Shown here piece by piece: positions 6,134 through 42,165 of a stretch of 45,929 bases of DNA (position 1 is its first letter; each line of letters starts with the position of its first letter). A program made the position numbers and the translations under genes. The stretch covers positions 1,554,360-1,600,288 of the forward strand of contig ML992504.1 in NCBI GenBank assembly GCA_010093995.1. The letters run 5' to 3'. Below the pieces are notes generated by a model that had not been told where the DNA came from, ran no database searches, and saw only the letters and a list, made by a program, of their open reading frames with translations. Origin of the DNA: Elsinoe ampelina (lineage: Eukaryota).

Positions 6134-7089
6134 TTACACGCTGGCGTTGAATTCATCAACAATCTCCCTGGCAGCCTTGACAATGTCAATGGCCCCGGGA
6201 GAGTCAGAGTGGCAGCACAGAGATACCTCATGGTCATCTATGGGCAATTCAACCTCTTCTCCAGTCACAGCTGTCACGCTGGAGTTCTCGACCTGATTCC
6301 GGATGTGCTTCTGCGTCTCTTCGGGCTTCCAAGCTCTGTGACCGTTAGCGCCATTCCCGCATTTAAGGGTATCACCAGGCCTACTTCTTCTTCCGATCAA
6401 TTACCAGGGTCCGATCCTTGTTGTACTGTACGTCGCCATACAACTCAGCCGTGAAAGGTAATTCGAGCTCCTTCGCGACTTGTTCGTGATAGGTGCCAGC
6501 TAGACCAAAAACTCGAGTCCCAGCTGGAACGCCAGCATAAGCTGCTCGACACGTCTCCACATCTCTGTACATCATTCCTGAGATGGATCAGTGAAGGGCG
6601 AATCTGATCACGGAATCTACCAACCATAGAGAACGCCATGTGGCTTTACGTGGTGCAGAGGCACATTCTCCGCATCCAAGAAACCCTTGAGAGCGCCTAC
6701 CTGGTACCGGACCATGGCGGTAATTTCTTCAGGAGACATTTTGATCTCCCTACGGCCAAAACCCTGGATATCTGGTAGTCCCGGATGCGCACCTATAGCG
6801 ATGTTGTTCTTCTTGCATGCCCGCACTGTTTCCTGCATGATGAGTGGGTCACCAGCATGAAAGCCGCACGCAATCTAGCAAAGGTCAGATCATACAGCTA
6901 CTACACGAATGTAATCATAGAGCGACATGCATTTGCATGATCAATCAACGGGATGAGCTCGTCGTCTGGTCCGCATTTGAAATTACCGTATCCTGTATCG
7001 GTTATCAGCGAAGCTTATCCAAAGCGTCATTGCCCCGCACCTTCACCCAGGTCAACATTGATCTTGACCTTTTGCTTCAGTCGACCCAT
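6134..7089 (-). CDS. lamB: LamB/YcsF (5-oxoprolinase PxpA-like) protein; 5 exons, introns 6993..7040, 6875..6930 (GC-AG), 6578..6624, 6336..6384
   Basis: Reconstructed protein [47 protein letters not shown]...[16 protein letters not shown]...[10 protein letters not shown]...AELYGDVQY...[11 protein letters not shown] carries all LamB/YcsF signature motifs. Confidence 0.93.
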
Positions 7090-7232
7090 TGTGTCACTTC
7101 CCAGTATTGATTTTGAGATTATGTACGACTAGCTGACAAGACAGATTGTAGCTCGATTGAATATACCAAGCTCGGTTCCGGATTGATCGTCACGGCTCCA
7201 AAGCACGACTCCAACGCCTCCAATTGACCCCT

Positions 7233-7321
7233 CTTATCACCAACCCGAGGAAGCTCGATCTGCCAATCCCACCTCCAATCGATCCTGACCTCACCAAGGC
7301 CCCATCTACCCCTCCTTATCA
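7233..7321 (-). promoter_or_regulatory. Two TGATAAG GATA-factor (AreA/NIT2-type) sites in the lamB/lamA divergent promoter
   Basis: CTTATCA at 7233..7239 and 7315..7321 in the 366-bp intergenic region. Consistent with nitrogen metabolite control, but short motifs are weak evidence alone. Confidence 0.4.
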
Positions 7322-7455
7322 GCCATGGCACACAACCGGCACCTGTCACCTGGTAGGCCCCCATTCACTCCCTCCAGGATTACTCCGGACCAATGGGCAC
7401 CTACATATCCCCCCTCCCACTACCATCCCCGATACCACCAACCTAGCATGCACCC

Positions 7456-10400
7456 ATGGAACGCATCAAATCCATCCTCATAGCCAACAGAGGCGAAATC
7501 GCCGTCCGCCTCTGCCGCACCGCCCGAAACCTCCACCTACGCACCATCGCAATCTACACCAACGCCGACGCCGCCTCCCTGCACGTGACTGCAGCTGACG
7601 AAGCGATCCTCCTATCAGGTCCAGACAGCACAGCCTACACCGACGGCGACGCCATCATCGCCATTGCGAAGGCGCAGGGCGCCGACGCGATCTTTCCTGG
7701 TTATGGCTTTTTGTCGGAGAACGCGGACTTTGCGAGGAGGGTGAGGGGGGCGGGGCTGGCGTGGATAGGCCCGGCGCTCGAGGTAATCGAGAAGTTTGGC
7801 GTGAAGCATGTTGCGCGTCAATTGGCGGAGGAGGCCGGGGTGCCTGTTGTGCCGGGCAGCAAAGGGCTACTGCGGGGCGGGGAGGAGGCGGAGAGGGAGG
7901 CGCAGAGGGTGGGGTTTCCGGTCATGCTGAAGGCTACGGGGGGTGGTGGTGGGATGGGGTTGGTAGTCTGCAGGGATACAGGGGAGGTGAGGAAGGGGTT
8001 TGAGATGGTGAAGAGTAGAGGGCAGGCGTTGTTCAGAGACTCTGGAGTGTTTCTGGAGAGATACGTGGAGAAGGGTCATCATGTTGAGGTGCAAGTATTT
8101 GGGAACGGGCAGGGTAAGGCAGTAGCGTTTGGTGAGAGGGAATGCAGCATTCAGCGGCGACACCAGAAGGTGGTCGAGGAGTGTCCGAGTCCGTTTGTGG
8201 AGAGACACGATGGTTTGAGGAAGAGGTTGTGCGATGCTGCTGTCAAGTTGTCGGAGAGCATCAACTATGGTTCTGCTGGGACGATTGAGACACTAGTCGA
8301 CGATGCGACTGGGGACTTTTACTTCCTGGAAATGAATACACGATTACAGGTCGAGCACGGTATCACGGAGCTCTGCTACAATGTCGACCTTGTGGAACTC
8401 ATGATCAAACAAGCTGATGCTGAATTGGCTGGCAAAGGCGGGCTCGAGGCGAGCTATTTGCAGTCGCTTGTACCTGAAGGACCCTCTGGGCATGCCATTG
8501 AGGCGCGAGTGTATGCTGAGAACCCACTCAAGGGCTTCACTCCTGCTCCTGGACTGCTACAAGATGTACACTGGAACGAGATTGAGGGCAGCCGCATAGA
8601 TACCTGGGTCTTCACAGGAGCAAGGGTGACTCCAAATTACGATCCGATGATTGCCAAAGTCATGTACCATGGCGAGACTAGAGAGCAATCAGTCAAGGGC
8701 ATCCTCGAAGTCCTTTCTGGCTCACGAGTATCTGGACCTCCTACCAACCTTGACTTCCTGTCCCAAGTCATTCTCTCAGACGACTTCGCCTCTGGCAATA
8801 CCATCACTGCTTTCTTGGATACATTCGAGTATTCACCATCAGTAATCGATGTGATCAGTCCTGGAGCTTACACACTTATACAAGACCTACCAGCTCGGCC
8901 TTCCGTGGGGAAAGGCATCCCGCACTCTGGTCCAATGGACCCAATGGCTTTCCAGATTGCCAACATGCTCGTTGGGAATGATCGGACGAGGGAAGGCCTT
9001 GAGATCACCCTCAATGGCCCAGAGCTTCACTTCATCGGCGCTGCAGTCGTAGCGCTGACTGGCGCGTCTATGGATTTCCTGCTCGACGGCGAGACTGTAC
9101 AGATGTGGTCGAGGATACATATCAAGCCCGGCCAGAAACTCAAGATTGGAAAGACTCTTGCTGGTGGGTGCCGATCGTATCTGGCTGTGTATGGTGGGTT
9201 CCCATCAGTGGCTGAATACTTTGGCTCGAAGAGCACTTCTCCACTTGTAGCGATCGGAGGCTACCAGGGTCGCCAACTTGCACCGGGAGATCTATTGTCA
9301 ATCTCAAAGGATATTCCGGATGCTTTGTCCTCCCAAATAGGTTTGCCTGAACACGTCGTACCAAAATACGGGGACGATTGGGAGATCATGGCCATGGTCG
9401 GTCCCCACTCGGATGGATACTTTCTCCCTGAGGATATCGAAATGATCTACTCGACGAAGTGGAAAATATCACACAATGCCAGTCGGAGTGGCATTAGATT
9501 GGTAGGGCCAGTCCCCAAATGGGCACGCAAGGATGGTGGCGAAGGTGGCTCACATCCGAGTAATCTGGTCGAATACGGCTATCCTCTCGGAGCACTGAAT
9601 TGGACTGGTGACGATCCCTGCATCTTTCCGGTTGATTGTCCGAATTTTGGCGGTTTTGTATCGAGCACTACGATCATTCGAGCTGAATGGTGGAAGATGG
9701 GACAAATCAAGGCTGGTGATACCATGCAGTACAAACGGGTGACCTTGGATGAAGCCCTGTCACTACGCAAAGACAACGACGCTTTCCTCGACAGTGTAGA
9801 GTCAGCTATCAAGTCGAACAGCTCACTTGACTCTATCAAGCCTATCAATGCTCACTTTGAGCCATCATCGATTGGCGACGACGCGATCATCTGGCAACGT
9901 GAAGCTACCGACAAACTTCCTCAAGTCCGCTATCGTCAAGGAGGTGACGACCATCTCATCGTCGAATACGGCAATGAGCAATTTGACCTCAACCACCGCT
10001 GCCGGGTGACCGCCCTCGAAACCGCGCTCCGCTCCCCTTCAGCCCCCTCCTTCCTCAAGTCCCACCTCATCAACACCGTCGGCTGCTGCACCTCCCTAAC
10101 CCTCTACTACAACGGGGCCCTCCTCCCCCGACCCCGACTAATCTCCCACCTCCAACACCTCGAAACCCTCCTCGGCGACCTCTCCACCACCAAAGTCCCC
10201 AACCGCACCTTCACCCTCCCCCTCTCCTTCGAGTCCCGCCCGCAGACCGATGCCATCCAACGCTACATCGAGACCCAACGACCACACGCCCCATACCTCC
10301 CGGACAACCTCTCCTTCGTCGCGCAAAACAACGCCTTCACCCCCTCGCAGCTCAAAGACATCTACCTCACGGGCTCCTTCCTCGCCGTCGTCGTCGGCTT

Positions 10401-11213
10401 CTTCTGCGGCAACACCGTCTCCCTCCCCGTCGACCCACGCCAACGCATGTCCTGCCCGAAACAAAACCCCTCGCGCGTCTTCACCCCCGAGGGGACGGTG
10501 AGCTGGGGCGGTAGCTGCATGAGCATCTACCCCGTGGACAGTCCAGGGGGTTACCAGATGACGGGACGAACGGTGCCTTGCTTTGATTACTTTGGGTGGA
10601 AGAAGGGGTTCAGCAGGGACAGGCCGTGGTTGTTCCGGGATTTTGACGTTTTGACGTATAAGAGGGTGAGTGAGGCGGAGTTGGATGAGGTGTTGGCGCG
10701 GTTTGGGAGTGGGAGGTATGAGTTTGAGTTTGTGGAGGGGGAGTTTGATATGGGGGCGCATAATGGGTTGTTGGAGCGGACGAGGGAGGAGGTGAGGGGG
10801 ATTAGGGAGAGGCAGAGGGTGGCGCAGGGGGAGATGGTGAGGGCTGAGGAGGAGAGTTTGGTGAGGTGGAGGGAGGAGAAGGCGAGGAGTAGGGGGGATG
10901 AGGGGCTGGTGGAGGGGTTGGTGAATGGTGAGTCTGATGTGGGCATGTTGGGTGTGGGTGCTGATGCTGGGCAGATCCGAAGATTGTTAGTGTTGATGCG
11001 CCGGTGGATGCGAATGTTTGGAAAGTGGAGGTCAAGGAGGGAGAGATGCTGGGGGCGGGTAAGATGGTGGCGATATTGGAGGCGATGAAATTGGAGATTG
11101 GAGTGAACGCGCCGGAGGATTTGACAGAGGGGACGAAGGTAGAGAAGCTGCTAGTCTTGCCGGGTGAGACGATCAAGGCAGGTGGGAGGATAGCGCTGCT
11201 ACGGACACCTTGA
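7456..11213 (+). CDS. lamA: Stand-alone urea-carboxylase-like biotin enzyme (biotin carboxylase + AHS2/AHS1 carboxyltransferase + biotin carrier), LamA-like; intron 10928..10974
   Basis: ILIANRGEIA, PGYGFLSEN, KATGGGGGMG, RECSIQRRHQKVVEE and FLEMNTRLQVEH (BC domain); GIPHSGPMD, GGYQGRQL, SRSGIRL (AHS2/PxpC-like); SPGGYQMTGRT (AHS1/PxpB-like); last exon gives ILEAMKLEI (biotinyl-Lys). There is no N-terminal amidase domain, so it is not a Dur1,2 fusion. Divergent from lamB as in Aspergillus nidulans. Confidence 0.9.
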
Positions 11214-15114: not shown

Positions 15115-16698
15115 CTAATGATCCTCCTTGATATCAATCTCCGTCTTATGGAACTTCCTCGCCGACACCTTCCTCTCAAACAAAATATCAATCTCCCTAA
15201 ACGACCGTCCCCTCATCTCGGGCAACTGGAAGAACGCCGTGATCAAACACAACAACCCCGTCGCCCCCCACACATACCCACACTTGCCACCCAAATTCGC
15301 CCCGAGCGGATTCAACATCCACGACGCGAGGAAAATACACGGCAACTCGATGATGTAGTACGCCGCGCGCCCCATCCCCGTCGTGAGAGGCCGGAGTCGC
15401 ACGGCTGATGTCTCCCCGATGACGACCCAGGACGCCGGGGCGGGACCGAGACAGAAGAGGACCGAGACGATGAGGCCGAGGGACGCCTGCGCGAGGGAGG
15501 CAGAGTTGGAGGCGCCGACGGAGCCGGCCACGCCGAGAGCGATGAGGAGGATGGTGTTGGCTGCGGAGCCCCAGAGGTAGATTGGGCGCCGACCGAAGTA
15601 GGATGTCAGTACCCAGGAGCCCATGACGAAGATCATCTGCAGGGCTGAAGTGATCAAGCCGAGAGCGAAAGCGAGGTTGTCGTCGATGCCGGCTTGTTGG
15701 AAGAAGTAGACGGCTTGGTTGGCGATGAGGTTACCCGTGAGGTTCTGGGCGAGGTAGACACCGCAGACGATGAGGGTGCGGCGGAGGTCGGTGCCCTTGA
15801 AGAGTTCGGGGATGCTGGGCTTGTTGGCGGTCGATTCGTGGTCGACGATACGCTTGACCATTGCGAAGGAGTCTTGCGCGTTGACCATGCTCTTGCGGCC
15901 CAGACGCCCGATGGCTTTGAGAGCGTCGTCGAAGCGGCCTTTGCGGGTCAGCCAGTAGGGGGATTCGGGGGCGAAGAAGATGAGGATGGCGAGGGGCGTG
16001 GGGAACATCCATTGCAGGGCGATGGGGACGCGGTAGGCTGAGGGTCCGGTGATGCTGTTGTAGTGGTAGGTGATGGCGCCGACGATGATGCTGCCGATGG
16101 CCCAGAACATTTGAAGCATTTGGGTACAGGGAGCGCGGAGCTTGATAGGAACGATCTCGCTGCAGTAGGCTGGGGCGTTGGCGATGAAAATACCCCAAGG
16201 GATACCCTCGAGGAGCTGAGCGGCGAACATCACTGGGAGCGAGTTGGCGAAATAGAAGATGAAGATGAAGGCGTTGAGCAGCATCAGGCCCGTGATCGTG
16301 GCCCATCGGTAGCCCAGCCAGGTGGTTAGAGGTCCTGCCACGAAGACACCGATGAGAGCACCGAGTTGTCCGGCAACTTGGAGAGATGACTGCCACTTTG
16401 TGACAATGACATTCTTTCCAGTTGCTGGATCCAAGACACCGTATTCGTCCTTGAAGGCACCCAGAGCCAAGAAGTTACCGATGAGGAAGACGTCGTAGGA
16501 CTCCATGATGATGGTGCAGGACATGACAAAGGCCCAGAAAGATGCCATCGGGTACATCTTGACAGCCTCGAGGACAGTCATGTTGTGCTCAAAGGCTTCG
16601 CCATCGATAGCCCCAGCGTTGATGTCCGGCTTCTCCGGGTGGTGGTGGTCTTCATAGACGACAGACTCTTGAGCCTTGACATCGTCGAGGTTGGACAT
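15115..16698 (-). CDS. MFS sugar porter, maltose/alpha-glucoside permease-like (527 aa, intronless)
   Basis: IIMESYD, WQSSL, EGIPWGIF..APAYCSEIVPIKLR, PIALQWMFP..APESPYWL, DLRRTLI, FGRRPIYL, GETSAVRLR, LPEMRGRSFREIDILFERKVSARKF; about 12 TM segments. Confidence 0.9.
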   Translation of the reverse strand: MSNLDDVKAQESVVYEDHHHPEKPDINAGAIDGEAFEHNMTVLEAVKMYPMASFWAFVMSCTIIMESYDVFLIGNFLALGAFKDEYGVLDPATGKNVIVTKWQSSLQVAGQLGALIGVFVAGPLTTWLGYRWATITGLMLLNAFIFIFYFANSLPVMFAAQLLEGIPWGIFIANAPAYCSEIVPIKLRAPCTQMLQMFWAIGSIIVGAITYHYNSITGPSAYRVPIALQWMFPTPLAILIFFAPESPYWLTRKGRFDDALKAIGRLGRKSMVNAQDSFAMVKRIVDHESTANKPSIPELFKGTDLRRTLIVCGVYLAQNLTGNLIANQAVYFFQQAGIDDNLAFALGLITSALQMIFVMGSWVLTSYFGRRPIYLWGSAANTILLIALGVAGSVGASNSASLAQASLGLIVSVLFCLGPAPASWVVIGETSAVRLRPLTTGMGRAAYYIIELPCIFLASWMLNPLGANLGGKCGYVWGATGLLCLITAFFQLPEMRGRSFREIDILFERKVSARKFHKTEIDIKEDH

Positions 16699-18299
16699 GT
16701 TGGCGGTGATGGCCTGAAGGGAAGAGAGAGATGTATCGAATCAATCAGAGTGAAATGAGACCCTCAGACTCGACTGAACAAGAAGAATAAATCATGGGAA
16801 TTGATCAGTCTTTATGTGACACGAGATGGTCGTGGAAGCCCCACGTATCCCCACCGGAGGCCCGGATATGTCGGGGTTGCGAGCTGGAGAATATGGTTGC
16901 GGGCCAGGCGAGACAGGTCTGGTTATGCTCGGATATGTTTGTGACAGGATCTCGGAGACCATTGCATCATCGGCAGGAAGTGATACTCAATACCCGGCAT
17001 AATTACGGCTCCGTTTTTGGACCTTGACTGGTCGTGTGCCACCAGCTAGCGACGTGCAGTCCACAGTAGAGCAGAGATGTGTCGCCTGGACGAAAGCGGC
17101 TGAAATTGCGGCGGCATGCAGACGAGGGCAACCTAAGATCCGTCAGTGCTGACAAGCTTTGCAGCGTCTGAAGCTTAAACCTACCAGAAGCTTCGTCAAT
17201 GCTTGTCTCACTCGATCGAGACGTGGAGACCAATTCTGGGGACTCCGGAGGGGATTTGTGCGCACCGCAAGAGCCTCCAGAGTATCAGCTGCCCCGTTCA
17301 GCCTCCGCACCGTGTCCACTTTGCAAGCTGGAGAGGCATTTCCGCCTTGCTCACAGTAAGTTAACTTATCTGCTTGGTCGTCTCCGGAATCCAAGGGTGG
17401 GTAAATCAGCCGTATCTTGGTCCCCATGAAAGGTGCAGGATCCGGATGAGCAGGTGTATTCTGTCCCGTCCAGCATAGTGTGTCACCAGCCAACAGCTCA
17501 AACGGTCATGGGTCGAGGGTCTTCAGCTCATGTGGCAAGATCTGCAGTGTCCTACGGCCCGGATCTGGGGAACAAAGCACGTGTGAGGAGGGCGAGCTTG
17601 CACTCGAATTGACATGGAAACTCTTGTGAGGTCTTGCGCGTAAGAGTAAGTTAATGGACGGCCTCGAGCGTTGTCACCAGCTTGGGAGTGCCTTACCTGC
17701 GATTTGTCCGCTCTCGTAGTGTGGATGAGTCTGCTATTTCGGTGTTGATTGCACCAATATGTCAGAGCAAGCATTGAATGAGGTGTTGAGGTGTGAGGTC
17801 ATGTCCTGAGCCTCGCCAAGTCAGTAGTTGCCGACTTGGCGATGGTCCCTGGCGGCCTTGAGGTCAGAGCCGCGTGAATATGCGGCTTCGGAAACCCGGT
17901 ATCCCCACGTTCACACGATGCTTTCTCTCGAAGTGAAACTCTGGTCGACCTCGATCTTTGCGAAACACACCCAATTATATTATAAGTCGAACGCATGTGT
18001 TCTAGATCCTATTCGCGAGCAAGACATCGGTCAGCCACGTAACTTACTCAGCACGTTCGAGATCAGCACAGCACGATCGATATGAAGTTAGACGATAAGT
18101 TAACTAACTAAGTTGTAGTAACAACTTAAGCTCGGTCGCGTCATCTGTCCACATGAGATCGTGCGTAGATTGCTCTGGCCATCATCCCATAAGTTACGTC
18201 TGAGATGAACGTCGACATCGCTGCCTTCAGCCTTCCTCATGGGATGACAGACCTCATGGCCTCGAACACTGTTGAGCCTCTCTCTAGCTTGCTACGACG

Positions 18300-18374
18300 C
18301 CACTACACCCACAGCCACTTCACCCACAGCCACTACACCCACAGCCACTACACCCACAGCCACTACACCCACAG
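18300..18374. repeat. Minisatellite, 5 x 15 bp (CCACTACACCCACAG)
   Basis: Five tandem copies read directly; copy 2 has one A>T change. Confidence 0.92.
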
Positions 18375-18437
18375 AGACGTCTTCTGCTGTTGCTGTGATG
18401 GATGCTCGTCACATGCCGCGAAGCTCACACATTGAGC

Positions 18438-18555
18438 CTGAACCTCGCAGACTGAATTGAAAGAACCTCGCAGAATGAATTGACTGAACCTCGCACACTG
18501 AATTGACTGAACCTCGCACACTGAACCTCGCACACTGGGTCTCGCGCACTGAACC
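18438..18555. repeat. Minisatellite: 3 x 23 bp (CTGAACCTCGCASACTGAATTGA) followed by ~3 x 14-bp sub-unit (CTGAACCTCGCACA)
   Basis: Tandem copies read directly, with degeneration toward the right end. Confidence 0.85.
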
Positions 18556-21500
18556 ACAAGCGCTAAGCTCAGCTGGTCAAGAGTGTTTAAGTTAGTGTTC
18601 ACCTCGATTCGCAAGTTCACGCAGACCGCAGCTTGATGAGCGTTCCCGGATGACAGGGCGCCTGTTGGCAATACGGTGTAAGTTAGCCTGTGTGTGGCAA
18701 TTGTTTGCTGATAATGCCGGTGGACAGCGGGCTCCGCGGCTCGATCTTGTTGATCTGACATGAAACACCTGACTGTCTGTGACTTGTTGCGGGAGGGAGG
18801 GTGGCAAACGAAAGCACACCAATAACAGCGAGGTCGAGACAGACGATAGCAGCCTGTGCAGCGCTTGATCACTGCGTCGTTGCGTGGAGCAATAAACAGA
18901 GCAGCACGTCAGCACAGCAGTCACCGGCTGCTTCCCGTCCACTCGCACTCCAAGTCCGACAGGCGTCATCTCACAAGCATCTTTGGGCCTTATTGTGGTC
19001 TCGCTAGACCTCATTGAAGCTGATTGAATGTCATCAGACGAGCGCTGGTCCTGAAAAGTTAAAGTGAAAGGTAGAGACCTACCAGCAAGAGTCGACGGTG
19101 AAAGCCTCGTCTTGATCCATGGAGGAGGAGATAGTGGAGGCCCTTCAAGGTCATTCGGGCGCAGGCAAACCACTGAAATTGCACATCAAAACCATGCTCT
19201 GTGCGTGATCAGCTGCGATTGTTGAACATCTTCATCGGCCGCAAGCTGAATTACCTAATGAACAAGGTCATGCATGATCATATCGTCGCTTGTTCTGGCA
19301 CTGAATAACAAACCTTGCTCTTGAACTCGACGCTAGACCGCGTGACGCCAAAAGTCCGAAACCGTCCAAAAGACCACTCCGAGCGAATCCTAACTTACCA
19401 GCGTCCATGTCGAGGCTTGTCTCCAGCTGACTTAAGTTACGCATGCCAAAAGTCAAAGGTTCTGACCGTGGCGCCCGAGAGGGATGGGGATTTTGCCTCT
19501 AGAGCCATTCCTGTATTCTTCAGAGATCCTGATTCATGACAGGTGGTCTTGCAACTTAGGAGCCTCTCACAGCAGCTATTTTGAAGAAAGCATGAGAATG
19601 CGTCGAAGCAAAAACTGTCCATGATCTCACACACATCGGTCTCCCGCTCTCAACACAAGATGATCGTGCTAGACCGAGGTGAGGCCGTGAATAGACTCCG
19701 ACATGACCATTATTCAGCTGAGTGGTAATGTCAAAGTCATCATGATCTCATTGACGGTGCTGTAATCCTGCCTGTCGACTCTCTTGATCCTGTCAGCTGT
19801 GTCAGACTCGTCACTCTTGTCAACCTTGTCAGTCTCGACAGCCACCCTTCTGCTTTTTCAGGCTTGCTGTAAGACAAGCGGCTATCCTCGCTAGAGCTGC
19901 CGAAATGGGACATTTCCCTCGGGATTGGTCAGTCCTTGCGTCTTTGCATGTCTGGAACACCGTTGATCTCGTTACGAGGGCAACTGTTCTGCGTGTGACT
20001 CTGCTTTTGTGCGAGACGCGCTGCATCACGTTGCGTCGTGCTTGCTCATTAACCTCAGGTCCTGCGAGCTGATTGACATGCCTTTTTCTTTGACTGTCGC
20101 TCTTGAGCAGACTGGTCCGACCATGTGCCCAAGATGTCACCAGGTCCACGAATGCTCTTGTGTCATTCTTGAGTGTTGACTTCAGCATGCATCGATCAAG
20201 GGCTGACGCTCGGTGAATCGACTCATGCTGGCAGCGATCTACCACGCGGTGTAATGACTTAGTGATTCAAAATGGACACATCACCGGCTGTCTTTGAACG
20301 CAAGTGCTTTCCGTCTGACGATTTTGTGAGAGGACGGCTCTGACAGTGAGTCCACGAGACTGTTTCACTGTCTAACTTACGGAGTCATTCTCCCAGTTGA
20401 TGAGGTCGTCTCGCCAGTCATGATTCTTTTTGCCCCACGCTAGTGTGCAGTGCAATGGCCAATATGGTAACTTAAGTTATTATGTTGTCTTCGTCTGATC
20501 TGAGCGAGACGCTGTTCGTCAATTCCATCCGTTGCTCGAATGAGCACTGAGTGACAAGAGGCGCATCAATTCAGCATAAAGACAGAGAGCGTGCGACAGC
20601 GAAAGGTTGTGACGGTCGTGTTTGAACGAAACACACTAGTTAGAAGCTCTTCAGCTCTTTCGTGCTTTTTCCCAGAGGCCTTGTCGTCGGGGTTCACAAG
20701 TTATCAAACCGGCAAGTCAGCACTTGCGCCACGGTCCGATATGAACTGGCTGAGATCATTGTCAATTGAGTGCTGCGGCAATAGCTAGAAGGATGTTCCC
20801 CTCTTCAGGCGGGCCACTTTTGATCCATGCCTGGATCCAGCTGTGTGGTCAACTGGTCATGGAGCGCGGGGATAGAGTGATCCATTGAGGGCTAATAGAC
20901 TGCAAGCGAGGTCGCTCATGATGTGCAAGAGCGACAGAAAGGCCATGGTGGTAGTTCCATGACGTCTTGCTTGTCGGCTCCATCCCAGCATTGGATCAGC
21001 CAAGCTGCTCATGGTTTCTTGACTTTGACCTGGTCATTGATGGCTGATGGGAGTGGTCAAGTAACTTAGTTAACTTGAGCGATGAGGCATCGGGTGCTGA
21101 CATGAGGTTGCCACTGCCGAACTTGACGCCGCACACGAGAGCAGTGCTTGCCGCAAGGACCCTGAGGGATAAGTCATAGGAGAATGCGCCGATGCGGTCG
21201 TGTGAGGCCGTGACGATTGCGACTCGGCAGGGAGCGTTGAGGAGAGGCAGAACATGTGACGACGAGGCGATGCGGCAACGCGAGCGATGTGAGGGACCAG
21301 GTAGAGCAGCAAGTGATGCGAAGGGCAAGAGGGACAATGTCAGACAACGAGGTCGTGAAGAGATTCACAGCGAACATGAACGGCAAGCGCGTGTGGTGCC
21401 TTCAGGACTGCCCCCAGGATGAGCAGTGACATATTACGGATGCTCTGGAGGGAGGAGCATACAAGCACTCATCCCGTCCAACATGGGCCTACTTCGACCA

Positions 21501-21566
21501 ACTTGAGACATCACAAGAGGAATACATTCCCTAGGTAAGTTATCCAACCACAGGTCATCCAAGCTC

Positions 21567-22166
21567 CTAATCCGAGTCCGAGCTATCACTGCTGTCGCTC
21601 CCACTTCCCCTGCTCTTCGACTTGTGCTTCTTCTCCTTCTTGTCCTTCTTGTGCTTCTTGTCCTTCTTCCCTCCCTTGCCGTCCTTGTAGTGATCCTCAA
21701 GCTTCGAACCAGCGATAGCTCCTCCAATAGCACCGATGACACCGTGTCCCATGGCGTGACCACCCATTGCTCCAGCAGCAGCGCCAGCTAGACCGCCCAT
21801 CAGACCTCTGTCTTGTGGCCCGCCCTGTTGCTGTTGGTAGCTCTGCTGAGGAGGGTATCCTTGCTGACCGCGGTTGTCGTAGCCCTGCTGCTGTGGTGCA
21901 CCGCCGTAGCCCTGTTGACCGTACCCTTTGCCATGCTGTTGTTCGTGGCCGCCGTGCTGTTGACCATAGCTTTGCTGAGGAGGTCCGCCGTAGCCCTGCT
22001 GCGGGTGCTGTTGCTGACCGTACTGTTGCTGTCCACCATACTGCTGTTGACCGCCGTACTGTTGTTGCTGGCCGCCATACTGCTGCTGACCGTAGCCGCC
22101 TTGCTGACCCTGCTGACCGTATCCCTGCTGATGACCGCCTCCGCCGTAATAGTCGTTCGAGGACAT
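21567..22166 (-). CDS. Gly/Gln/Tyr-rich low-complexity protein with glycine-zipper segment and basic/Ser-Asp tail (199 aa)
   Basis: ATG in good context (ACAATG); QQQYGG repeats; DRGLMGGLAGAAAGAMGGHAMGHGVIGAIGGAIAGSKLED (Gly-zipper 2TM-like); KKDKKHKKDKKEKKHK tail. Confidence 0.8.
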   Translation of the reverse strand: MSSNDYYGGGGHQQGYGQQGQQGGYGQQQYGGQQQQYGGQQQYGGQQQYGQQQHPQQGYGGPPQQSYGQQHGGHEQQHGKGYGQQGYGGAPQQQGYDNRGQQGYPPQQSYQQQQGGPQDRGLMGGLAGAAAGAMGGHAMGHGVIGAIGGAIAGSKLEDHYKDGKGGKKDKKHKKDKKEKKHKSKSRGSGSDSSDSSDSD

Positions 22167-22538
22167 TGTTAGGTATCAGGAGATGTGTGGGTGAGGTTGT
22201 GCGAGGTGGATGTGAGGAGAGAAGGAATGCGCCGAGTGTTGTATAGATTTGGTGTATGTCAGAAGTGGAGGAATGCTGGTCTTCTTGAGCTGATGTGATC
22301 CAAAGCTGAAGAAACAGGGTTGCCCCGCAGATTGTCAGGGACGTCAGGCGGCAGCTGCGGATGTGTCAGGTCCCGCGATGTCCCATCCAATCAACGTTGA
22401 GCTTTTCCGAGCTTTGACGCTTTTGCGCTGTGATGAAGCTGAAGTTAATTGCACCGCCACTTGCAACGGACAGTTTCGGGGCGGTGCATCCAGCACCTAA
22501 AGTAGCCAGAGGGTACCGTCATCGCACCACCTTGACTC

Positions 22539-24245: not shown

Positions 24246-27200
24246 GGCATACTTACATTCAAAGACACGAAGTCAAGAGAATTGAAGTGACTACCCAGCA
24301 AATGTGGTCGCCTCGTCAAGAGATGTCGAGATTGACCAATGAGATGGAGCTATGCCGTCTGCGCCTCAATCCACTCACGGATTGTACAAGGCAGTGACAC
24401 GGAGGCAATCGGCGAACCCACCGCTCCTGTCACAGATTACAGACTGTTGCGGAAACATCGCATGGATGGATGATGCCTGCATTTGTTGAATCCTGGGAAA
24501 GGATATCAGGAATTGAAGCTCTCGTTCCATTAATCCAGCTCGTCACGTAATGCTGTTTCACGCTCACAACCCGTTTCCTAACGTCACATAAGAGCATATA
24601 CCTAGAGCGAGACACATATGCAGGCGCTGGTATAGAAGCCATTCTTGGAGATATTCAGTAGTATTCTGGGCAAAGCTAGGTACTGTGGATGAGGCTAGTT
24701 CTGGTCAGACGATCGAGAGAACGGCGTCTGCGCCTTCACCCTTGTACACACTCTTACCTATAGACAATGCTTATTGTGTGTTGCTATGATGGCGGTGTCG
24801 GGAAATTGCGAAGAAACTATATGCCGGACATAAAGGACAACCTCAACAAAGCCCCGAAGGCGATTGCCTTCTAGCACCTGCAGAATCTTATGATACAGAA
24901 TCGAATCTACCGTAGGGGACGGGATGCGTAGCCTGGCTCAGTACGCTTTAAGCAGTCCAAACTCGAGGGATTTAGAGAACAAGGACGGATGATAACCTAC
25001 CAGACCGTCACTTCGCGGGCAGTAAGTTTTACGTAACCTCTGCACCTTCGAGCTCGCTTCCCAGGAGTCATCGATATAGTAGGAAGCTGACGAGGCCTGC
25101 CCCTATCTCACCGATAGTCCACCGACAGCAGGCATAACAAGACGTCTTGCATGCTTGATCCCGGAAGACGGTCCTCGAGCAAACAGTGGATATGCAGATG
25201 CAAAGTCTGGGACAGACCGCTCCCGATAGACTTCTGTCATGGACTTTTGGATTTCCTGGTTGCTTTGTTTGCTTTACCAGCGACAAGGGGCCCGCAATGC
25301 CTGTCAAAGGCAAACGCGAACAAGAAACGCACATCACATGCAGATGCAGTCCAGCCCAATCATCCATCGGACGTGCATGTTCGCCGTTCACGGCGCTGGG
25401 AAAAGACAAAGTGCGCTCGAGCGGGGTTGAATATGCAGAAGAAAGTTCCACTACCTTGCCGGAGAGAGCCATGCGAGTTTGTCCCACAGTGATGGATGTC
25501 AGGGATTGCTGAAATAATGCAACAAGTCGATCATGGATGCTGAAATTGAACTACCAGGAATATATTCTTGATGCTTGCACGAGTCGTTGCATCGTTCGCG
25601 AGCATGCAGTGAAAAAACCTCCGAAAATGCAGGATCCTTGCCTGGTAGGACCCATACCAGGACTGTGGATCCAAAGACTGCAGGAGAGAGGTAGTCGGCT
25701 CGGCTCTCACCACCAAAATGTAGTTTGACACATTGGCACTGCTGGGGATGACGGCATGAAGCATGCGCTGGGAAGGAGGATGGATTGGCGGCTGCAAGTC
25801 TGCAGCGAGTGGTCAAGTTGCAGTACGGTGAGGAAAGTCCCCCGCTAATGTGCGTTGGAATGGCTGGGCCTGACTCCTCGATGACGGACGGCAGCGCTGC
25901 GGACCTCTCCCTGCCTGTACCGACAGTCTATTTGCACCGTTGTGTTTCATGACCGACTTTGACAGGTCGTGACGATGGTCGAGAAACGTCAACGGCCACG
26001 GGCTATCGAACACGAGCCGTAACCGTTGGAGAGAGACCTCCAAGCGACGACCAAGGGACGAGGTACCCGCCCGCACGACACGGCAGACAAAGCTTTTCGG
26101 AAGATTGAAGAGTCCAAGCGTCAAAGCTTGTTGCGCAAGCGACTCGTCAGTGCGTTGATGGAAAAGGGCGAGGAAAAAGCATCATATTTCCTGCACGTCC
26201 AGTTGTCATGCTTTCGATAGCGCGGGGGTTTCGCCGTGGGAGCATGGGTTCGGACTTTTTGGAGCAAAGCTCGAGGGAGATCATGAGCAGTTTGAGAGTG
26301 AGTCCTGAATCGCAACGACCCACCTCGAACACATGGGCGTGCTTTTTTCTGTGGTACAGATCATCCCTTGAGCGACAATCTGAAGGAGAGAAACGTGCTT
26401 ATCCCTGTCGTGGTTGACGCCGTACTGTACGTGTGCGACGGGTAAGAGTCCACTTTTGTGCAGAGGAGGATTGTGAACTCGGAAAGAGGTCGAAATGCGA
26501 CTCAGGTGATGTACAGGAACCCAATGTCAGGTCGGACTCGTCGGGGCTTGGTTTGGGTGTGTCCAAGGTGCAACGCTCAGCGACCTGGGATGTCCGTCAC
26601 GCCCGATCTGACGGTGAGATCCAGGACCGCCATCCAGCCACTGGATCTACCATGGTGTGTCTGCACAAAATCCAACGGCAAGTCTCGATAGCCCAGCTCC
26701 TGTAGCTCCCGCGTATAGCAATCAGCGGGCTTTGTGCCGTGGTGTACAACTACAAAAGCGGTCTCTCGCCCGGAAATCGCACGGGAGGCGTTTGTCCAGC
26801 CAGGCAAAAATGCGGACGGGGGCCTGGCGCTGTGTGTGTGACACGGTCAAAACGGCCATTTAGACGTGGAGCCGCTACCTTGTTTCTGCAGCTAAAAACG
26901 GGCGCCATGGCCTGTTTGGGCAACGGCTGGTCTTGCGATCGAGTCATGGGTTCTATGCAGACCCGCCCCTCGGTTCGCTGACATGCCTGACATTCCTCTG
27001 TTCCAGCAGGGAGGGTTGGGAAATCTCTCGATCATGGTTCCCAAGGCGCTGGACAGGTCATCATCTCCGAGCGGGACTCCACGGGAGAGTGACATTTTAG
27101 GGCTCTTCTGAGCTGTGGGTTTGGGTCAGAGCTGACCGTCGAGGTGGTACAGACCTGACAGATGTAGAAGAAACGTTTGAGACTGGCCATGATACGAGAA

Positions 27201-27650
27201 ATTGGCTATTCGCTGTGCTGGGCTGCTTGCCGTCAACGTGTGTTCCTGTACCTGTGCGGTGGCATGCTCCGATGTGGAGGATTGACCGTTGAAGAGTCCT
27301 GCTCGAGTCGCTGCTGTGATTTGAGCAGGCTGAGGGTACATCAAACCTCCTGTCTATGCAGAAATGTCGAAGGTCGTGATGACAGGCGCTGTGTCGCAAC
27401 TATGAGCGACGCATCACGTGCCTTCATATGCCGCTGTTCCCGACGTCGGCTGGATCTCCAGCGAGTCAGGCTTGGCGTCTCCAGCTCCACTTCATGAGCT
27501 GCCGAGTGCGACTTGAAGAGAGGTAAGTCGATCGAGTGAAATTGTACATACCAGTGATTGTTTCGTCATTGCTTTTACCGCCGGTCATGTCTCTATTACT
27601 CCAATTTCGCTAGCGGAACAGCATGCAGATCGACCATCCTCCTCGAGATC

Positions 27651-29337
27651 ATGGACGCCGAAGAAGAGGAGCATTTCGATGGTCCAGAAGACTTCAGCAA
27701 GCGCATTCATGACATTGTGACGGCCCCTTGCGACACACATCAAGCTATCGATGATAGCCTGCGACAGTTCATCAGCGCCGTAACCTCCTTCCACCGTATG
27801 GCAATTGCATCCACAAAGTCGAGGCGGCGTTGACATCTTCCAGGAGATCACCCCGATCTGGTTGGAGACCATGTCGACCACGGCTGCTTCGAGTTACTCG
27901 CGGCAGATCTGTTCACGGCCAATCGCGACTATGTCAGACGACAATTCATCTACAGCTTGATGCAGGTTCGTCACGCTGTATGATGGGCGAGTCAAGGCAC
28001 ACGACTGACCCGGCAACAGGAAGATGAATACCCCGTGCTACAAATAATGACCACTTTCTTAATATATGACGGCAAGCATGACGAAGAGACGTTTGTAATG
28101 ATGCAAAATGAAGGCTTGTTTCCCCGACTGGTGGAACTGATCAAGAGTGGGAGATACGAGGACACCTTGGTCCACAGACTCTTGCTCGAATTGCTATGCG
28201 AGATGACGAGGATACAAGTCTTGTCACGAGACGATCTGAGTGAGTGTGCGTCTGTCCTATCTTGGGGTCATGACTGATCCGCGCAACAGAAATGGTGGAC
28301 GACGCTTTCATCCTCTACCTTTTTCAGCTGATCGAGCAGCTCTCCCATGATCCAAGTGATCCATATCACAATGCAATTATCAGGATTCTGGTAAGCGCCC
28401 CATTCACGTCGGCGACTGGCCTTCTAACTTTGCTCAGCTTGTGCTTAACGAGCAATATATGTGCTTCGATACGGATGAATCTGGCGATACGACTCAAACA
28501 GATCCTATACCCAACCGTATTGTCAAGATCCTCTCATCCTACGGACCAGCGTACCGAGCTTTTGGAGAAAACCTTATCCTCCTTCTCAATAGGGAAAGCG
28601 CACTCGGTCCTCAATTGCTGATACTCAAGATCCTGTACCTGTTGTTCACAACCCCGCAAACATTTGAATACTTTTACACCAATGATTTGCACGTTCTTGT
28701 TGACGTGATCATGCGCAACCTGGTGGACTTGGACCCTGGTTTCGACGATGACGACGACGACGGCAATCCGACCATGTCTCCGGAAGGTACTGGCAATAAG
28801 GCTTTACGCCATACCTACTTGAGGGTTCTTTACCCCTTACTGAAGAACACCCAATTGGCTCGTGAAGACGGAAACTACAAAACGGAAGAGCTTCGGAGAC
28901 TCCTTCGCCTGCTTGTCTCCTCATCCTCACAACATTTTGCACCCGCAGACAGCACGGTTCTCCGTCTTGTGTCACGGTGTCGACAAATCGATTGGATCAA
29001 GGATGAAGCGGATGAATTCTCCCATATCGAGTCTCCCACGGCAAAGAGTCCACCATCAGATGGTGATGTTGCTAAACGATTACTTGGCATGACCAACATT
29101 GAGGCGGGCATCAGCAGTCTCAGTGTTTTAGAAGTGACTGCGAAAGTCGAGAAGGAGGACAAGAAGCAGAAACCCGCGCTACCGCCTCCGCGTCGAATCA
29201 AGAAGGTCGCAGATGTCACGAACCCACAAAATGGAAATGGCAGGCTCAAGGTGAAGCCCATGATACCCAAGCCGCGAAGAGCGCGAAGCGAGCAGATCAG
29301 AGATCGCAGTCCGTTTTCTGACGACTCTCCTGGATGA
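27651..29337 (+). CDS. LDB17: Ldb17/Dip1/SPIN90-like Arp2/3 activator (DUF2013); introns 27796..27843, 27966..28019, 28240..28289, 28391..28437
   Basis: Four canonical GT-AG introns join the ORFs in frame. Motifs NRDYVRRQFIYSLMQED, FPRLVELI, LLVLNEQYM, FGENLILLLNRE, LILKILYLLFTT, EYFYTNDLHVLVDVIMRNL and LRHTYLRVLYPLL; Pro-rich tail (KPALPPPRR). Confidence 0.85.
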
Positions 29338-30321
29338 ATGCACTTTTATTTCCAGATTCCCAACTTGCTCGCCAGTAGCGGCAGATCCCGATACAGGACT
29401 TTGGATGATTGACGTCTCTCACAGATGTCAAACCTGACAGTGTTGTATCTCGACCCTGCAGCACGCAGCCAATTGACACGGCCAGCGAAAAAAGGGGCAG
29501 ATCAATTCTACTAGCGACCTGGGAGCTTTCGTGGCGTTCGGCAACTGTTGTGTAACCGCATCCTTGGACCACCAGACCAGGATCAAACTCGGGTACCTTG
29601 CTTGCATGTCAGACTAATGGCAGCCTTGCACCACCTCAACCGTCTGCAAACTCCCGACGTACAATTTCAATTTTCTTCCTTCCAATGCACCTCATCCAGA
29701 CTGTGCTGTCTTCTAGCCCTTGCTACGAGCGCATGGCCCTTCTGGTCTGTGGCGTCCTTGTTGGCTACCAACGCTCAATCCTCCTTGCCGAAACTCGGCC
29801 CATGTGGCAGCACAACTCTTTGTCAACATTAGAGGGCTCGGTCTTATCGACCGTCAATCTGATGCAGCTTCCTCAAGGGATATGGTATGGTAGCTTCACG
29901 CATATTCTCCGACAATCAGGCAAGGGTTGCTGCCATTTTTATCTTTAGCCGAAGATTGCGATATTGTCTAGAATTGCTATCACAAGTCTATGCCTTTCAG
30001 TGCGGCATGGTTGCACAGTCCCTCGCTGTCCTTGCTAGTAGCGTCTGCCAGGTACGAGCAGTGTCTGCATGTCCAGACCCATGCGCCACGACAAATCATG
30101 GTGGTGCGACAAACCTCTTCGGCCGCTCACATGCAATACATCCCCACTCTGACCCCTTCGTACTCCCGAGAAGTCGTGATTAGACAGAGTGAGAGCAATT
30201 GATATATCCTCCAGGCCTCCCAGTCTTTCATGAACTCCATCGTGAAGTGGTTCCACACCTTGTTGCCTCTCCTCATCGGACATTCGTTTGGACACTCGTT
30301 TTGCACTCTCGTTCTTCCAAG

Positions 30322-32417: not shown

Positions 32418-33287
32418 GGTTTCCCTTGAGATGTATCGGCGACGATGGCGAGGTAGTCCTCTTCTTCTTCAGGGCGGGTAATTTGCTATAGGCGAGCTGC
32501 TTCGATTCTGACACTCCTTTTCTTCCACTTCTTTGACATGTGGAGCCTGTCGTCGAGAGTCATAGTTGGCCCTAAGCTTCTTGTATCTTTAGGACTTTTA
32601 GATATACTTTTCATGGCAGTTTCTGGTCTCACTTCGTCGATTTGCTAGTTTAAAGCTGGGTGTAAAGCACAAATCCCCGAGTCAAAGACGCTTGCTATGC
32701 TACGCTAGTGAAGCCCAAAGACTAACGGTGTGTTCTATGTATCCTTGGTGCTCCTCTCCTTCTCCCCTATCGTCGTGGCTAGGGACATATCCTCCATCCC
32801 CCTGTTCGTCGCTTGCGCAAGCTGAAGCCTCGCACATGTCGACGACGGAATTCCACTCTTACCTGTCCCCAAGAGAGCCGGTGTTTTGGTGTACCTTGCT
32901 CTGCCACTCTGGAACCACACTCACACGCTTGAGTGCTGCTTCGGCTTCGCATTTGCTCGCCGTTGACAAAGTTTTCCAGTATCTGACTGGCGAGAGAGCT
33001 GTTTCTGATCTTCTCTATCCCGGCTGCCCCTGCGATGACCATGTGCTTGATTCAAGGTTTCGGGCTATCGATGTAAGACATAGACACCTCGGGGCTTTGT
33101 CACGATTGATTTGGTATCGCTGGCAACTGTGGATGGTACTCGCTTCGTCAGAACATCACTCGTGGAAGTACAGATGACTCTGGATTAAAGGTGTGTACGA
33201 AGTGTCGATTCATTAAACATCGTATCTATCTGTCCCCTCGTCCCCTCACACATCTGCCTCCCCTCTCCACTGTACGCTGTTGTACAT

Positions 33288-35840
33288 CTAGCACGACAGT
33301 GCTGGGCAACCGATCTGGGTTCCGTATGGCTGTGACAGGTCAGTTTGAGGTAACGTGCGACGACAAGGTCAATACTCACGTCCGGACCAGCGATGCCGGC
33401 AATTTGGAAGATGGCGTTGATGACGCCGCCGATACCCTCGCCTGCAATCAGACCTGCGGCCACAGCGTAGCCGTAAATGTCGAAATGCTCGGGTTTCTTC
33501 TTCGCCCAGAAGTAGGCGGGGATGGCGCCCATCAACATGGCCGTTCCGTAATGGGTCTGTGGCAGCACGAATGCCAAGCCAATGCACTGCCGACGTTGTT
33601 AGAGCTGTTCTGATAACATGTGATACTGTGGAAGTGTTTGGGCGGCAAAAAAAGGGGTCGGGTCAGGGGGTGAAGCAAAAACATCTGAAACTCGGGGGAT
33701 TGACATACCATCATGTTGGGGTGATACACGCGGTACTTTTCCCATGTTCCGCGGTATGCGTAATGGCGAACGATGATCATGAAGACACCGAAGATCGCGA
33801 AGACAATCGAGAAAATACCGGAGCTCTTGGGGATCGGGAAGGTTGGGTCGGTGACGGCGATGGCGGTCGCACGCCAGGCGGCAATCGAGGGACCGCTGAA
33901 GGGGCAGGTCTCTGCGTTAAGGTCGATGATGCATGGGTACGCCTTTGCGAAAAGGATGAACATGGCTGGTGCAAGGAACACGGCCACGATTGTGCCAAGA
34001 CCTTGAGCAACCCATTGCTGCTTGGGGTTCGTGCGGAGCAGGAAACCAACGCGGAAGTCGCCGACAAGATCAGAGGCCTGGTTGGCACCGATGGACGCAA
34101 GAGAACCACCGAGCAAGTTGAGGCGTTGGGCCTTCTCGGTGACCCATCCCTCGCCCTTCGTCGCGCCACCGAGAACGATCTGGGATGCCTTGGAGGCTGC
34201 GGTGAGAGGTGTAATGTCGGTGACACCAGTGCACTGGATGGCGAGGAACGAGAAGAAGAAGGCCAAGAAGACCGAGAGAAGAGACATGCCGACAGGCATC
34301 TCGAACTGGACGCCCATGACAACGCAAGTGCAGATAATGACGACCAGCAGAAGAGGAGCCCACCAGAACCATGGAATAAGCTCGTGAGGCTCGGCAGAAT
34401 CCTTGACCATGTCGTCGAGTTTTTGCGAAGCGCGACTCTGCATCTTCTCGCTTGGCTGCTTACCCATCTTCTTGGTGATATCGACGTATGCCTTGCAGCA
34501 TGCACGGACGATAGCCTTGCCGATGAAGAAGATGACTTGGTACTGGAGAAGCAGCTCAGTAAAGGACACGGCAATCATGAGCAATACACCAGGCCAAAGG
34601 AGCCAGTAGCGAGGAGATGGGTGGTCCTTGGTGGAGAACTTGGAGGAGAGCGAAGCGTAGGAGATGTACTCGCTCCATTTCTCATCACCGGGAGCGAGTG
34701 GATTACCAAAAGCCATGCCCTGGCGAACAAGGGATGGTCCGATAATACCCCAGGCGATGACTGAACCGAAGAAGAATGAGAAGGCAGTGTTGAGACCAAC
34801 AAGGATACCAGCACCAATGAAGGCAGGGGTGAATTCGATTATCCACAGCCAGTTCTCAACGTCAATGGCTCTGTTGTTGTAGCCGCCCCAGATGTAAAAC
34901 CAGGTGAAGGGATGCCAGTCCCAGAGGATGCCAATGGCATACTGAGACACGACACGGAGAACAAGAGCAGCAGAGAACGCCCATCCGAGTGCCCGCATCT
35001 TCATCTTGGCGATAGCCTCGCCGGTAGCTGCCATGTGCATCGAACGGATGGTCATGGCGGTGGCAGTCGGGGTTGGGAAGATCAGACGCAACTCCCTCGC
35101 CACGTAGATGATGAAGAACTTGCGCAACGGGGTCGCAAACGCAAAACCGAAGTAACCTGACGCGTTCAGCATGCATCTAGAGTGATAGAACGAATGGTCT
35201 GGGGGGTCAGGGGACGAGTGGGGAGGGGGAGGCGATTTATAAAATGCCAAGACTTACCACCGACGAGGGTCAGAGTGATCAAGCGCGGGAAATCGGACTG
35301 CGGGGTGTCCAAGAGGCCGAGTTGGTAGAGTGCCGGAATACCAGAGATGAATACAGACGAAAGGCCACCTGCTGCTGTTGCCGCAGTCTGGACGATGTTG
35401 TTCTCACGGGGACCAAAGTCACCACCGAGGATTGGGAAAGTCTTTGGGAGGACCTTTGCCAATGACTTGAGGACGGAGAAACCAATGATGGCACCGAAAA
35501 GCGATGCACCAAAGGTCCAACCAGTCTTCAATCCGAGGTAAATGTTGGAGGCGTTGACGGCGGCACCGCAGCAGCAGCCGACGAACATGGCACGAATGGT
35601 GACAATGCGGTCGGTCTCCTCCGGCAGATCGTCGAAAGGCTTGAATGGATCGTAGTCGAACTTCATGTCGTCCGGGTCGGTCTCCATCTCGCCAATGACG
35701 GCCGCGTCCTTCTCCTTCTCGTCACCTGACGAGGCGTTGGACTTGGTCTCAACGTTGTGAGCGGCGGCGTCAGATGGCCTGGCGGCGAAGACATTCTGCT
35801 TCTCGGTGAGAGGCGGTTGGTCTGGGTTGATGTGGCCCAT
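33288..35840 (-). CDS. OPT-superfamily (YSL-like clade) oligopeptide/metal-chelate transporter; introns 35157..35257, 33587..33708, 33330..33379
   Basis: TIRAMFVG, NIYLGLKTGWTF, PRENNIVQTAATA, PLRKFFI..LIFPTPTATA, QCTGVTDITP..SKASQ, DLVGDFRVGFLL, YAVAAGLIAGEGIGGV; last exon PYGTQIGCPALSC-stop. Confidence 0.9.
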
Positions 35841-42019: not shown

Positions 42020-42165
42020 TGTTAAAGCTTAGGAGTTCTGTCAATTTAGTTATCTCTTAGGTTATTAGGTTAAGTATTTATATAGTAAGAATCTACCTAA
42101 TTTTAGTGGATTAGGCAGTAATAAATCTTCTCTTTCCCTACACACAAGTTAATAGTTATAAGCCC
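42020..42165 (+). repeat. Putative 5' LTR (42020..42154) and primer-binding site (42155..42165)
   Basis: Starts TGTTAA and ends TTAATA (RIP-compatible with TGTTGA...TCAACA), immediately followed by GTTATAAGCCC, which resembles the copia-type GGTTATG(A/G)GCCC PBS. The 3' LTR is outside the window, so the boundaries are unconfirmed. Confidence 0.5.

Follow-up and report, generated by a model that had tools for sequence, protein, structure and literature searches.

Proposed excision footprints at an Elsinoe ampelina locus

The canonical footprint left by Sleeping Beauty and Tc1 elements is the 7-bp word TACAGTA or TACTGTA, in which three terminal nucleotides of the transposon lie between two TA dinucleotides and the central mismatch has been repaired either way (as described in PMC6943129). 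TA-targeting cut-and-paste elements of filamentous ascomycetes include impala and Fot1 (niaD locus; Fusarium and Aspergillus), which excise and reinsert (as described in PMC4832277 and PMC9113092). Of 94 natural excision sites recorded for rice in PMC4423477, eight were clean, leaving just two copies of the target site; the others carried deletions averaging 18 bp and/or filler sequence. Here we describe a field of a related word, TAAGTTA/TAACTTA (the heptamer), which fills a non-coding spacer in the fungus Elsinoe ampelina and is better explained by transposon excision than by anything else considered. The stretch analysed, called the window below, comprises 45,929 nucleotides of the forward strand (assembly GCA_010093995.1, contig ML992504.1, positions 1,554,360 to 1,600,288), and coordinates are those of the window.

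Enrichment of the heptamer

On either strand, TAAGTTA/TAACTTA occurs at 17357, 17362, 17647, 18040, 18096, 18190, 18588, 18679, 19391, 19433, 20373, 20468, 20473, 21062 and 21536 (n = 15). These exact copies, together with 13 one-mismatch copies, make up the field (17357-21542), which occupies the whole spacer. Other copies are found at 3131, 14665 and 37634, and at 43535 and 44596 within an AT-rich block at the end of the window. The window total of 20 compares with 2.42 +/- 1.55 in 100 dinucleotide-preserving shuffles, none of which reaches 20 (maximum 7). Scaled from the shuffles, 0.22 copies are expected in the 4186-bp field, an excess of about 65-fold. The AT-rich block bears the marks of repeat-induced point mutation (RIP); of the 18 copies outside it, 15 lie within this one 4.2 kb span (binomial probability 6e-13 for the given span). 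One-mismatch copies are also in excess in the interval, with 13 found and about 1.5 expected from the remaining window. The heptamer is a pseudo-palindrome, and its central base on the + strand is G in nine copies and C in six, with no clear preference.

Background rates were taken from 80 fungal loci from metagenomes, which were fetched with the protein of the transporter gene bordering the field; they amount to 606 kb, or 466 kb minus near-duplicates. The best protein identity of these loci to the window transporter is 75%, and they serve as background only. TAAGTTA occurs 16 times in the 466 kb of non-redundant DNA, where about 12 copies are expected. With 3.58 copies per kb, the field is 104 times as rich in the word as this DNA, which has 0.034 per kb. 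In a scan of the window and all loci for heptamer clusters (at least 6 copies in 4.3 kb), the field ranked first once simple repeats were set aside.

Two read sets of the source sample (about 200x depth) gave contigs that show zero differences from the assembly across 16700-22200, and the depth there equals that of the flanks. The heptamers are therefore no assembly artefact; the field sequence is correct and the interval is single copy. No variants were seen within 16700-22200 in contigs from either read set.

An initial annotation of this DNA had drawn attention to the interval. Each of the 15 coordinates that it listed was recovered, as were the three copies that it noted outside the RIP block, while its estimate of a 30-fold excess proved too low. 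The one-mismatch sites that it named are GAAGTTA at 18084, TAAGTTG at 18122 and 19552, and TAAGTCA at 20255; these and its nested 12-mers at 17357 and 20468 are present. It had called the interval gene-poor and not AT-rich, which agrees with the lack of coding signal or Pfam match in the spacer and with a GC content of 0.50-0.54. The heptamer is no motif of fungi in general, its rate in the 466 kb of other fungal DNA being close to expectation.

TA-N3-TA words and shared TA dinucleotides

TA-N3-TA words are over-represented as a class. Outside the RIP block, the window holds 63 of them, compared with 39.1 +/- 6.0 in 300 shuffles (maximum 57); a spacing of 3 is the most frequent among TA-TA spacings from 0 to 8, the others giving 37-54. 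The Tc1-type word TACAGTA/TACTGTA is the second most frequent of 19 TA-N3-TA word classes (11 versus 3.18 expected; 0 of 100 shuffles reach this count). Among TA...TA heptamers, it likewise shows the strongest over-representation in the other fungal DNA (59 versus about 32 in 466 kb, order-2 model). This excess across unrelated contigs is a hint that the intergenic DNA of fungi may commonly carry Tc1-type scars. TACCATA by itself shows no significant enrichment (6 versus 2.78; one of 100 shuffles reaches 6).

The words also tend to share a TA. Twelve-mers of the form TA-N3-TA-N3-TA occur seven times, where 1.2 are expected and none of 300 shuffles reaches seven; other spacings give 0-3. Six of the seven chains are composed of TAAGTTA, TACAGTA and TACCATA words. 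Two of the chains combine different words, namely TATGGTA with TAACTTA at 20463 and TAAGTTA with TACAGTA at 37634 (expected 0.014, P = 9e-5). Mixed chains of this kind are predicted by shared TA targets but not by independent binding sites. Within the field, two nested 12-mers are made of two exact heptamers, TAAGTTAACTTA and TAACTTAAGTTA; the probability of at least two such pairs is 0.001 under random placement and 0.35-0.60 if events pick any TA. The flanks of the heptamers are ordinary. G before or C after the word is found at 12 of 30 positions, compared with a frequency of 0.34 for TA dinucleotides of the window generally (P = 0.30), and no information or sequence similarity extends beyond the heptamer among the field copies.

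Chains are also found outside the field. One site is the pile TACTGTA-GG-TACTGTACAGTA-A-TAAGTTACAGTA at 37612-37645, made up of four canonical Tc1-type words together with a single AGT-type word, one TA of which also belongs to a CAG-type word. The pile is about 270 bp upstream of an open reading frame (ORF) with a glycosyltransferase family 90 domain (37907-39715). Another is TATGGTATGGTA at 29881-29892, where one TA is common to two TACCATA-class words.

A pile of the same kind was found in one locus of another fungus, whose transporter is 69% identical. Nine of the 11 TACAGTA/TACTGTA words of that locus lie within its positions 6336-9750 (3.4 kb), mostly in a 1.9 kb divergent promoter beside the transporter. 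The pile includes two nested pairs, TACTGTACAGTA and TACTGTACTGTA, and two TAAGTTA copies 92 bp apart; eight of the nine TACAGTA words have G before them. This locus shows that piles of TA-N3-TA words occur in other fungi. Since the loci were fetched by means of the transporter, the place of this pile beside one is partly a selection effect.

Proposed origin by transposon excision

Any explanation has to cover over-represented words that are chained through TA, have ordinary flanks and lie in non-coding DNA. We propose, with a probability of roughly 0.55, that the heptamers are excision scars (TA, three terminal nucleotides, TA) of an AGT-ended element that targets TA. This would be a cut-and-paste transposon of the Tc1/mariner/pogo type, with ends AGT...ACT, which inserts at TA and duplicates it. 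When it excised, the transposase would leave each flank with a 3' overhang consisting of the three terminal nucleotides. The two AGT overhangs would then anneal (A:T, G:G, T:A); after ligation, the central mismatch could be resolved either way. The former TA would thereby become TA-AGT-TA or TA-ACT-TA and grow by 5 bp. Since each scar provides two new TA dinucleotides, later insertions would sometimes hit an old scar and give rise to chains that share a TA. The field would then be a record of at least 15, and perhaps about 25, excision events in a spacer that tolerates 5-bp additions. Why this spacer was hit so often may be explained by short-range hopping of a resident element or miniature inverted-repeat transposable element (MITE) that was small enough, or single-copy enough, to escape RIP.

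The field has several of the characteristics expected of such footprints. All 15 copies have TA on both sides of an insert within the 2-4 nt range (TA-NNN-TA), and the central base occurs in both resolutions (G 9, C 6). The TA dinucleotides of the words are re-used, also between families (7 chains versus 1.2; 2 mixed versus 0.014), and the location is a harmless one, a spacer devoid of coding signal and Pfam matches. The initial annotation had already read the heptamers as scars, a view supported by the TA-N3-TA excess, the TACAGTA enrichment, the chains, the flanks and the mixed G/C centre; as to the other part of its proposal, no element with AGT-ended terminal inverted repeats (TIRs) was seen in the window or in the 606 kb, and no DDE transposase among the ORFs scanned in the window. 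Its idea that the element re-inserted in its own scar accords with the TA-sharing chains, while repeated visits by one element can only be inferred.

A narrower version of the proposal can be offered tentatively, and is itself unlikely. The field may trace the past movements of a lone TA-targeting element, either small or single-copy and short of the size or copy number needed for detection by RIP, which persisted in a RIP-proficient fungus by hopping over very short distances within one harmless spacer. The 15 to about 25 clean 5-bp scars in these 4.2 kb would correspond to one hop each, and the element would later have been lost.

Sites within the field

The field opens with the nested pair TAAGTTAACTTA (17357-17368), which reads TA-AGT-TA-ACT-TA and has one TA common to two heptamers. 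A single TAAGTTA follows on the + strand at 17647-17653. The next single heptamer, on the - strand at 18040-18046, is the sole copy with both G before and C after it. A dense patch at 18084-18131 reads GAAGTTA..TAAGTTAACTAACTAAGTTG..CAACTTAAGC; the exact heptamer at 18096 is accompanied by one-mismatch copies at 18084, 18101, 18105, 18109 and 18122, some of which partially overlap. Single heptamers on the + strand are found at 18190-18196, 18588-18594 and 18679-18685, and on the - strand at 19391-19397 and 20373-20379. Between the last two lies a nested pair with one change, TGACTTAAGTTA (19428-19439; TG-ACT-TA-AGT-TA). The triple chain TATGGTAACTTAAGTTA (20463-20479) reads TA-TGG-TA-ACT-TA-AGT-TA; here a TACCATA-class word shares its TA with the first of two nested AGT-class words. 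At 21062-21077 an exact TAACTTA is followed by overlapping near-copies, TAACTTAGTTAACTTG. The last heptamer (21536-21542, + strand) is 25 bp past the stop codon of a minus-strand ORF of 199 aa.

Two short tandem arrays, both free of the heptamer, are also located in the field. One (18299-18374) consists of about five copies of the 15-bp unit GCCACTACACCCACA; the other (18438-18555) consists of about four copies of a 23-bp unit that contains GAACCTCGCA. Apart from these arrays, no repeats link the surroundings of the heptamers.

Evidence against excision and the case for binding sites

A number of observations weigh against excision, and several of them are what a homotypic cluster of protein-binding sites would produce. 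In that alternative, a protein, perhaps a dimer, would recognise the pseudo-palindrome T-A-A-(G/C)-T-T-A and either regulate the sugar transporter or organise the chromatin of the spacer. bZIP factors read TGA(C/G)TCA or TTA(C/G)TAA, and dimer binding of TAAGTTA might be likened to this. We regard binding sites as rather unlikely, although they are the best of the rival explanations.

Firstly, the field is specific to one word. AGT-type and CAG-type words number 15 and 0 in the field, and 3 and 10 outside it (Fisher P = 2e-5); a binding protein with one preferred word would show such specificity. The window also contains a second gene-poor stretch of about 4 kb (24300-28300), which acts as an internal control. 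It has no coding signal and no Pfam match among its 46 ORF fragments; it contains no TAAGTTA and one TACAGTA. A family-specific field together with an AGT-free gene-poor stretch means that the field is no general hot spot for TA-targeting elements, so short-range hopping or targeted insertion must be assumed if the words are scars.

Secondly, the near-copies differ from the heptamer at their edges. The mismatch falls at positions 1/7 in seven of the 13 one-mismatch copies, at positions 2/6 in six (three of them overlaps) and at the inner three positions in none, and the inner AAGTT core is kept in all 13. Uniform neutral decay would place about 40% of mismatches at the inner positions; the outer-only pattern looks like the profile of a binding site, with a conserved core and looser edges. 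Faster decay of TpA could possibly give an equal pattern, which the TpA/ApT ratio of 0.52 allows but does not prove.

Thirdly, the double sites are of one type. Four of them have no more than one mismatch, and each of these four is inverted and palindromic (two AGT-TA-ACT, two ACT-TA-AGT, none direct), which speaks for binding sites. Random resolution of the central mismatch predicts that half would be direct (P = 0.06 for 0 of 4). In addition, the reverse complement of 17355-17370 is identical to 18094-18109 at 15 of 16 positions, flanks included, and agreement of two composite sites to this extent also favours binding sites.

Finally, rice excision sites are mostly messy, so 15 clean scars would need unusually uniform repair. 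Among 14 near-identical pairs of fungal loci, a small sample from other species, no polymorphic 5-bp TA-NNN-TA indel was seen.

The position of the field adds to the case for binding sites, since it occupies the region upstream of a gene of a regulated type. In the other fungi, 4 of 16 TAAGTTA copies lie within 2 kb upstream of the homologous transporter, although this region accounts for 11% of the DNA (P = 0.10), which hints at binding sites only weakly. Other features do not suit binding sites. The 15 perfect matches are spread evenly over 4.2 kb in both orientations, unlike known promoter clusters of fungi, and carry no information past the heptamer. Binding gives no reason for a TA at both ends of the word or for the excess of TA-N3-TA words as a class. 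It leaves unexplained why the heptamer shares TA dinucleotides with two other TA-N3-TA words, one of which is a published transposon footprint (P = 9e-5), and simultaneous occupancy of sites that overlap by 2 nt is hardly feasible. A full-text literature search for the heptamers found no published factor, returning just primers and unrelated matches; the same search found no footprint or transposon report that names them. The initial annotation had mentioned a protein-binding cluster as its alternative, and some of the observations above do lean that way, but the mixed TA-sharing chains and the class excess are not accounted for by it.

Search for a source element

The search for an element that could have produced the proposed scars was negative, which likewise counts against excision. 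In the window and the 80 fungal loci (606 kb), no element of the form TA|AGT...ACT|TA has TIRs with at least 15 of 20 matches; ACT, CAG, CCA and CTG ends, searched alongside AGT, also gave no pairs. None of the long inverted repeats in the window fits an AGT-ended element. A transposase family was matched by none of 143 ORF fragments from gene-poor zones and by none of 22 longer ORFs of the window. The window yields 414 such fragments; 179 of them, located in gene-poor zones, were selected and 143 of these were scanned, the remaining 36 lying at 11.3-12.2, 14.2-15.1, 29.3-30.4, 35.2-35.85 and 40.0-40.75 kb.

Fot1/pogo elements are recognised by a DDE_1-type transposase with a CENP-B-like DNA-binding domain and by TA-flanked TIRs; the ORFs scanned in the window include no such transposase. 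The AGT...ACT ends of these elements are as ascribed by the initial annotation; the full texts consulted yielded no statement on Fot1/pogo termini or footprints. Assignment of the source element to the Fot1/pogo superfamily is not supported by the tests made here.

Other explanations

Very old and diverged MITEs, or solo TIR ends, might have tiled the spacer and left the heptamers as their surviving termini (TA followed by AGTTA...). We consider this very improbable. Judged from coordinates and strands, opposite centres alternate in 10 of 14 neighbouring heptamer pairs, and several segments of 400-950 bp would run from a + heptamer to a - heptamer. In another genus, a Sordariomycete, TA-duplicating Tc1/mariner MITEs with lengths of 81-524 bp are described as common (PMC3227409). 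Against this, the copies have nothing in common beyond the heptamer, the segments between heptamers are mutually dissimilar, no TIR pair reaches 15 of 20 matches and nested pairs without a body cannot be element ends. Extant MITE ends were rejected as the main cause on account of the missing similarity beyond the heptamer and the missing TIR pair.

The least probable reading considered, by a little, is that the words serve as 5' splice donors (GTAAGT...) for non-coding transcripts that come from both strands and are spliced, or that they arose from some other TA-anchored mutational process that involves no transposon. Seven of the 15 copies are preceded by G and read GTAAGTTA, near the fungal donor consensus, as do the copies at 3131 and 14665 outside the field. 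Eight of the 15 have no such G, which is no commoner before the heptamer than before any TA of the window. The words also fall on both strands, searches for coding sequence and RNA families gave no signal, and splicing leaves the nested copies unexplained. GTAAGT continues with TA, giving GTAAGTTA, in 7 of 7 cases in the field compared with 2 of 11 elsewhere in the window, so plain splice donors are no explanation and were rejected as the main cause, as the eight copies lacking G also indicate. An origin of the heptamers by RIP was rejected because the indices of the field (TpA/ApT 0.52, (CpA+TpG)/(ApC+GpT) 1.32) are normal and like those of the rest of the window, compared with 1.95 and 0.37 in the RIP block.

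Setting and neighbouring features of the window

The field is bordered on the left by a gene for a major facilitator superfamily (MFS) sugar transporter of 527 aa (15115-16698, minus strand; Pfam Sugar_tr, E = 8e-73), and lies upstream of it. The gene has a third-position GC content (GC3) of 0.79, and its product is a singleton at 90% identity clustering among about 15 billion proteins. On the right, the field is followed by the 199-aa ORF mentioned above (21567-22166, minus strand), which has the field downstream of it. Its product combines repeats rich in Q, G and Y with a short stretch rich in G and A and a tail rich in lysine; it matches no Pfam family, and an identical sequence is absent from the protein collection searched.

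A GC3 scan found no coding signal in the spacer between these two genes. None of the 43 stop-to-stop ORFs of at least 55 aa in 16759-21787 reaches the Pfam cut-off. Rfam and tRNA searches of the spacer gave no match; one CRISPR-DR match with E = 0.92 is noise.

The AT-rich block at 41990-45929 has a GC content of 0.31 and continues past the end of the window. Translated with X in place of stops, it matches the domains RVT_2, SH3_retrovirus and Pol_BBD. The block is a RIP-mutated, inactivated Ty1/copia long terminal repeat (LTR) retroelement and no DNA transposon.

The window has two further features. The two arms of a 95-nt inverted repeat with 73% complementarity (32960-33054 and 35036-35130) are 1981 nt apart, and the greater part of an ORF for an OPT oligopeptide transporter (33532-35253, minus strand) lies between them. 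An ORF of 1213 aa at 7447-11088 combines biotin carboxylase with carboxyltransferase domains (CT_A_B, CT_C_D), which is the make-up of a urea carboxylase type enzyme.

Significance and comparison with known systems

Excision scars are normally recognised singly, either beside a known element or by comparison with an unoccupied site. The present field is dense and family-specific and is apparent in one sequence, with the TA-sharing chains as a further mark. If the heptamers are scars, TA-targeting transposons were once active in a genome whose sole visible repeat in the window is a retroelement killed by RIP, and counts of TA-N3-TA words and chains would be a simple detector of past DNA-transposon activity in fungal genomes. 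A spacer the size of a promoter would also have gained numerous short, identical palindromes through excision, and with them raw material for regulatory evolution. Should a single element have been responsible, the field would be a natural record of extreme local hopping, and its scars would have seeded an array of pseudo-palindromes that a DNA-binding protein could later adopt. If the words are binding sites instead, TAAGTTA would be an unrecognised and very exact one. The excision mechanism is already known; the density, cleanness and family-specificity of the field were not known before.

The field resembles homotypic clusters of transcription factor sites in fungal promoters in that many copies of a short pseudo-palindrome lie upstream of a regulated gene, with the core kept and the edges looser. 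It is unlike such clusters in that its copies are unusually exact, extend over 4.2 kb, share TA dinucleotides with unrelated words and have no factor found for them.

The likeness to the Tc1/Sleeping Beauty footprint is that the field word is also a 7-bp pseudo-palindrome composed of TA, three nucleotides and TA; moreover, the Tc1/Sleeping Beauty word itself is enriched in the window and chained to the AGT-type word. The difference is in the triplet, which is AGT/ACT in the field and would imply another element family, itself not seen. For Tc1/Sleeping Beauty, excision was induced and the footprints come from known donor sites, while the field words are interpreted from sequence alone. With impala and Fot1, as these elements are described, the proposed source would share TA targeting, cut-and-paste transposition and filamentous ascomycete hosts.

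The two-species comparison in rice reported in PMC4423477 concerns sites from which DNA transposons, those of Mariner type among them, excised naturally; most of these sites lie close to genes and outside coding sequence. They are scattered and were found by alignment to an occupied or empty orthologous site. In the Elsinoe ampelina spacer, 15 clean copies are packed into 4.2 kb and can be recognised in a single sequence.

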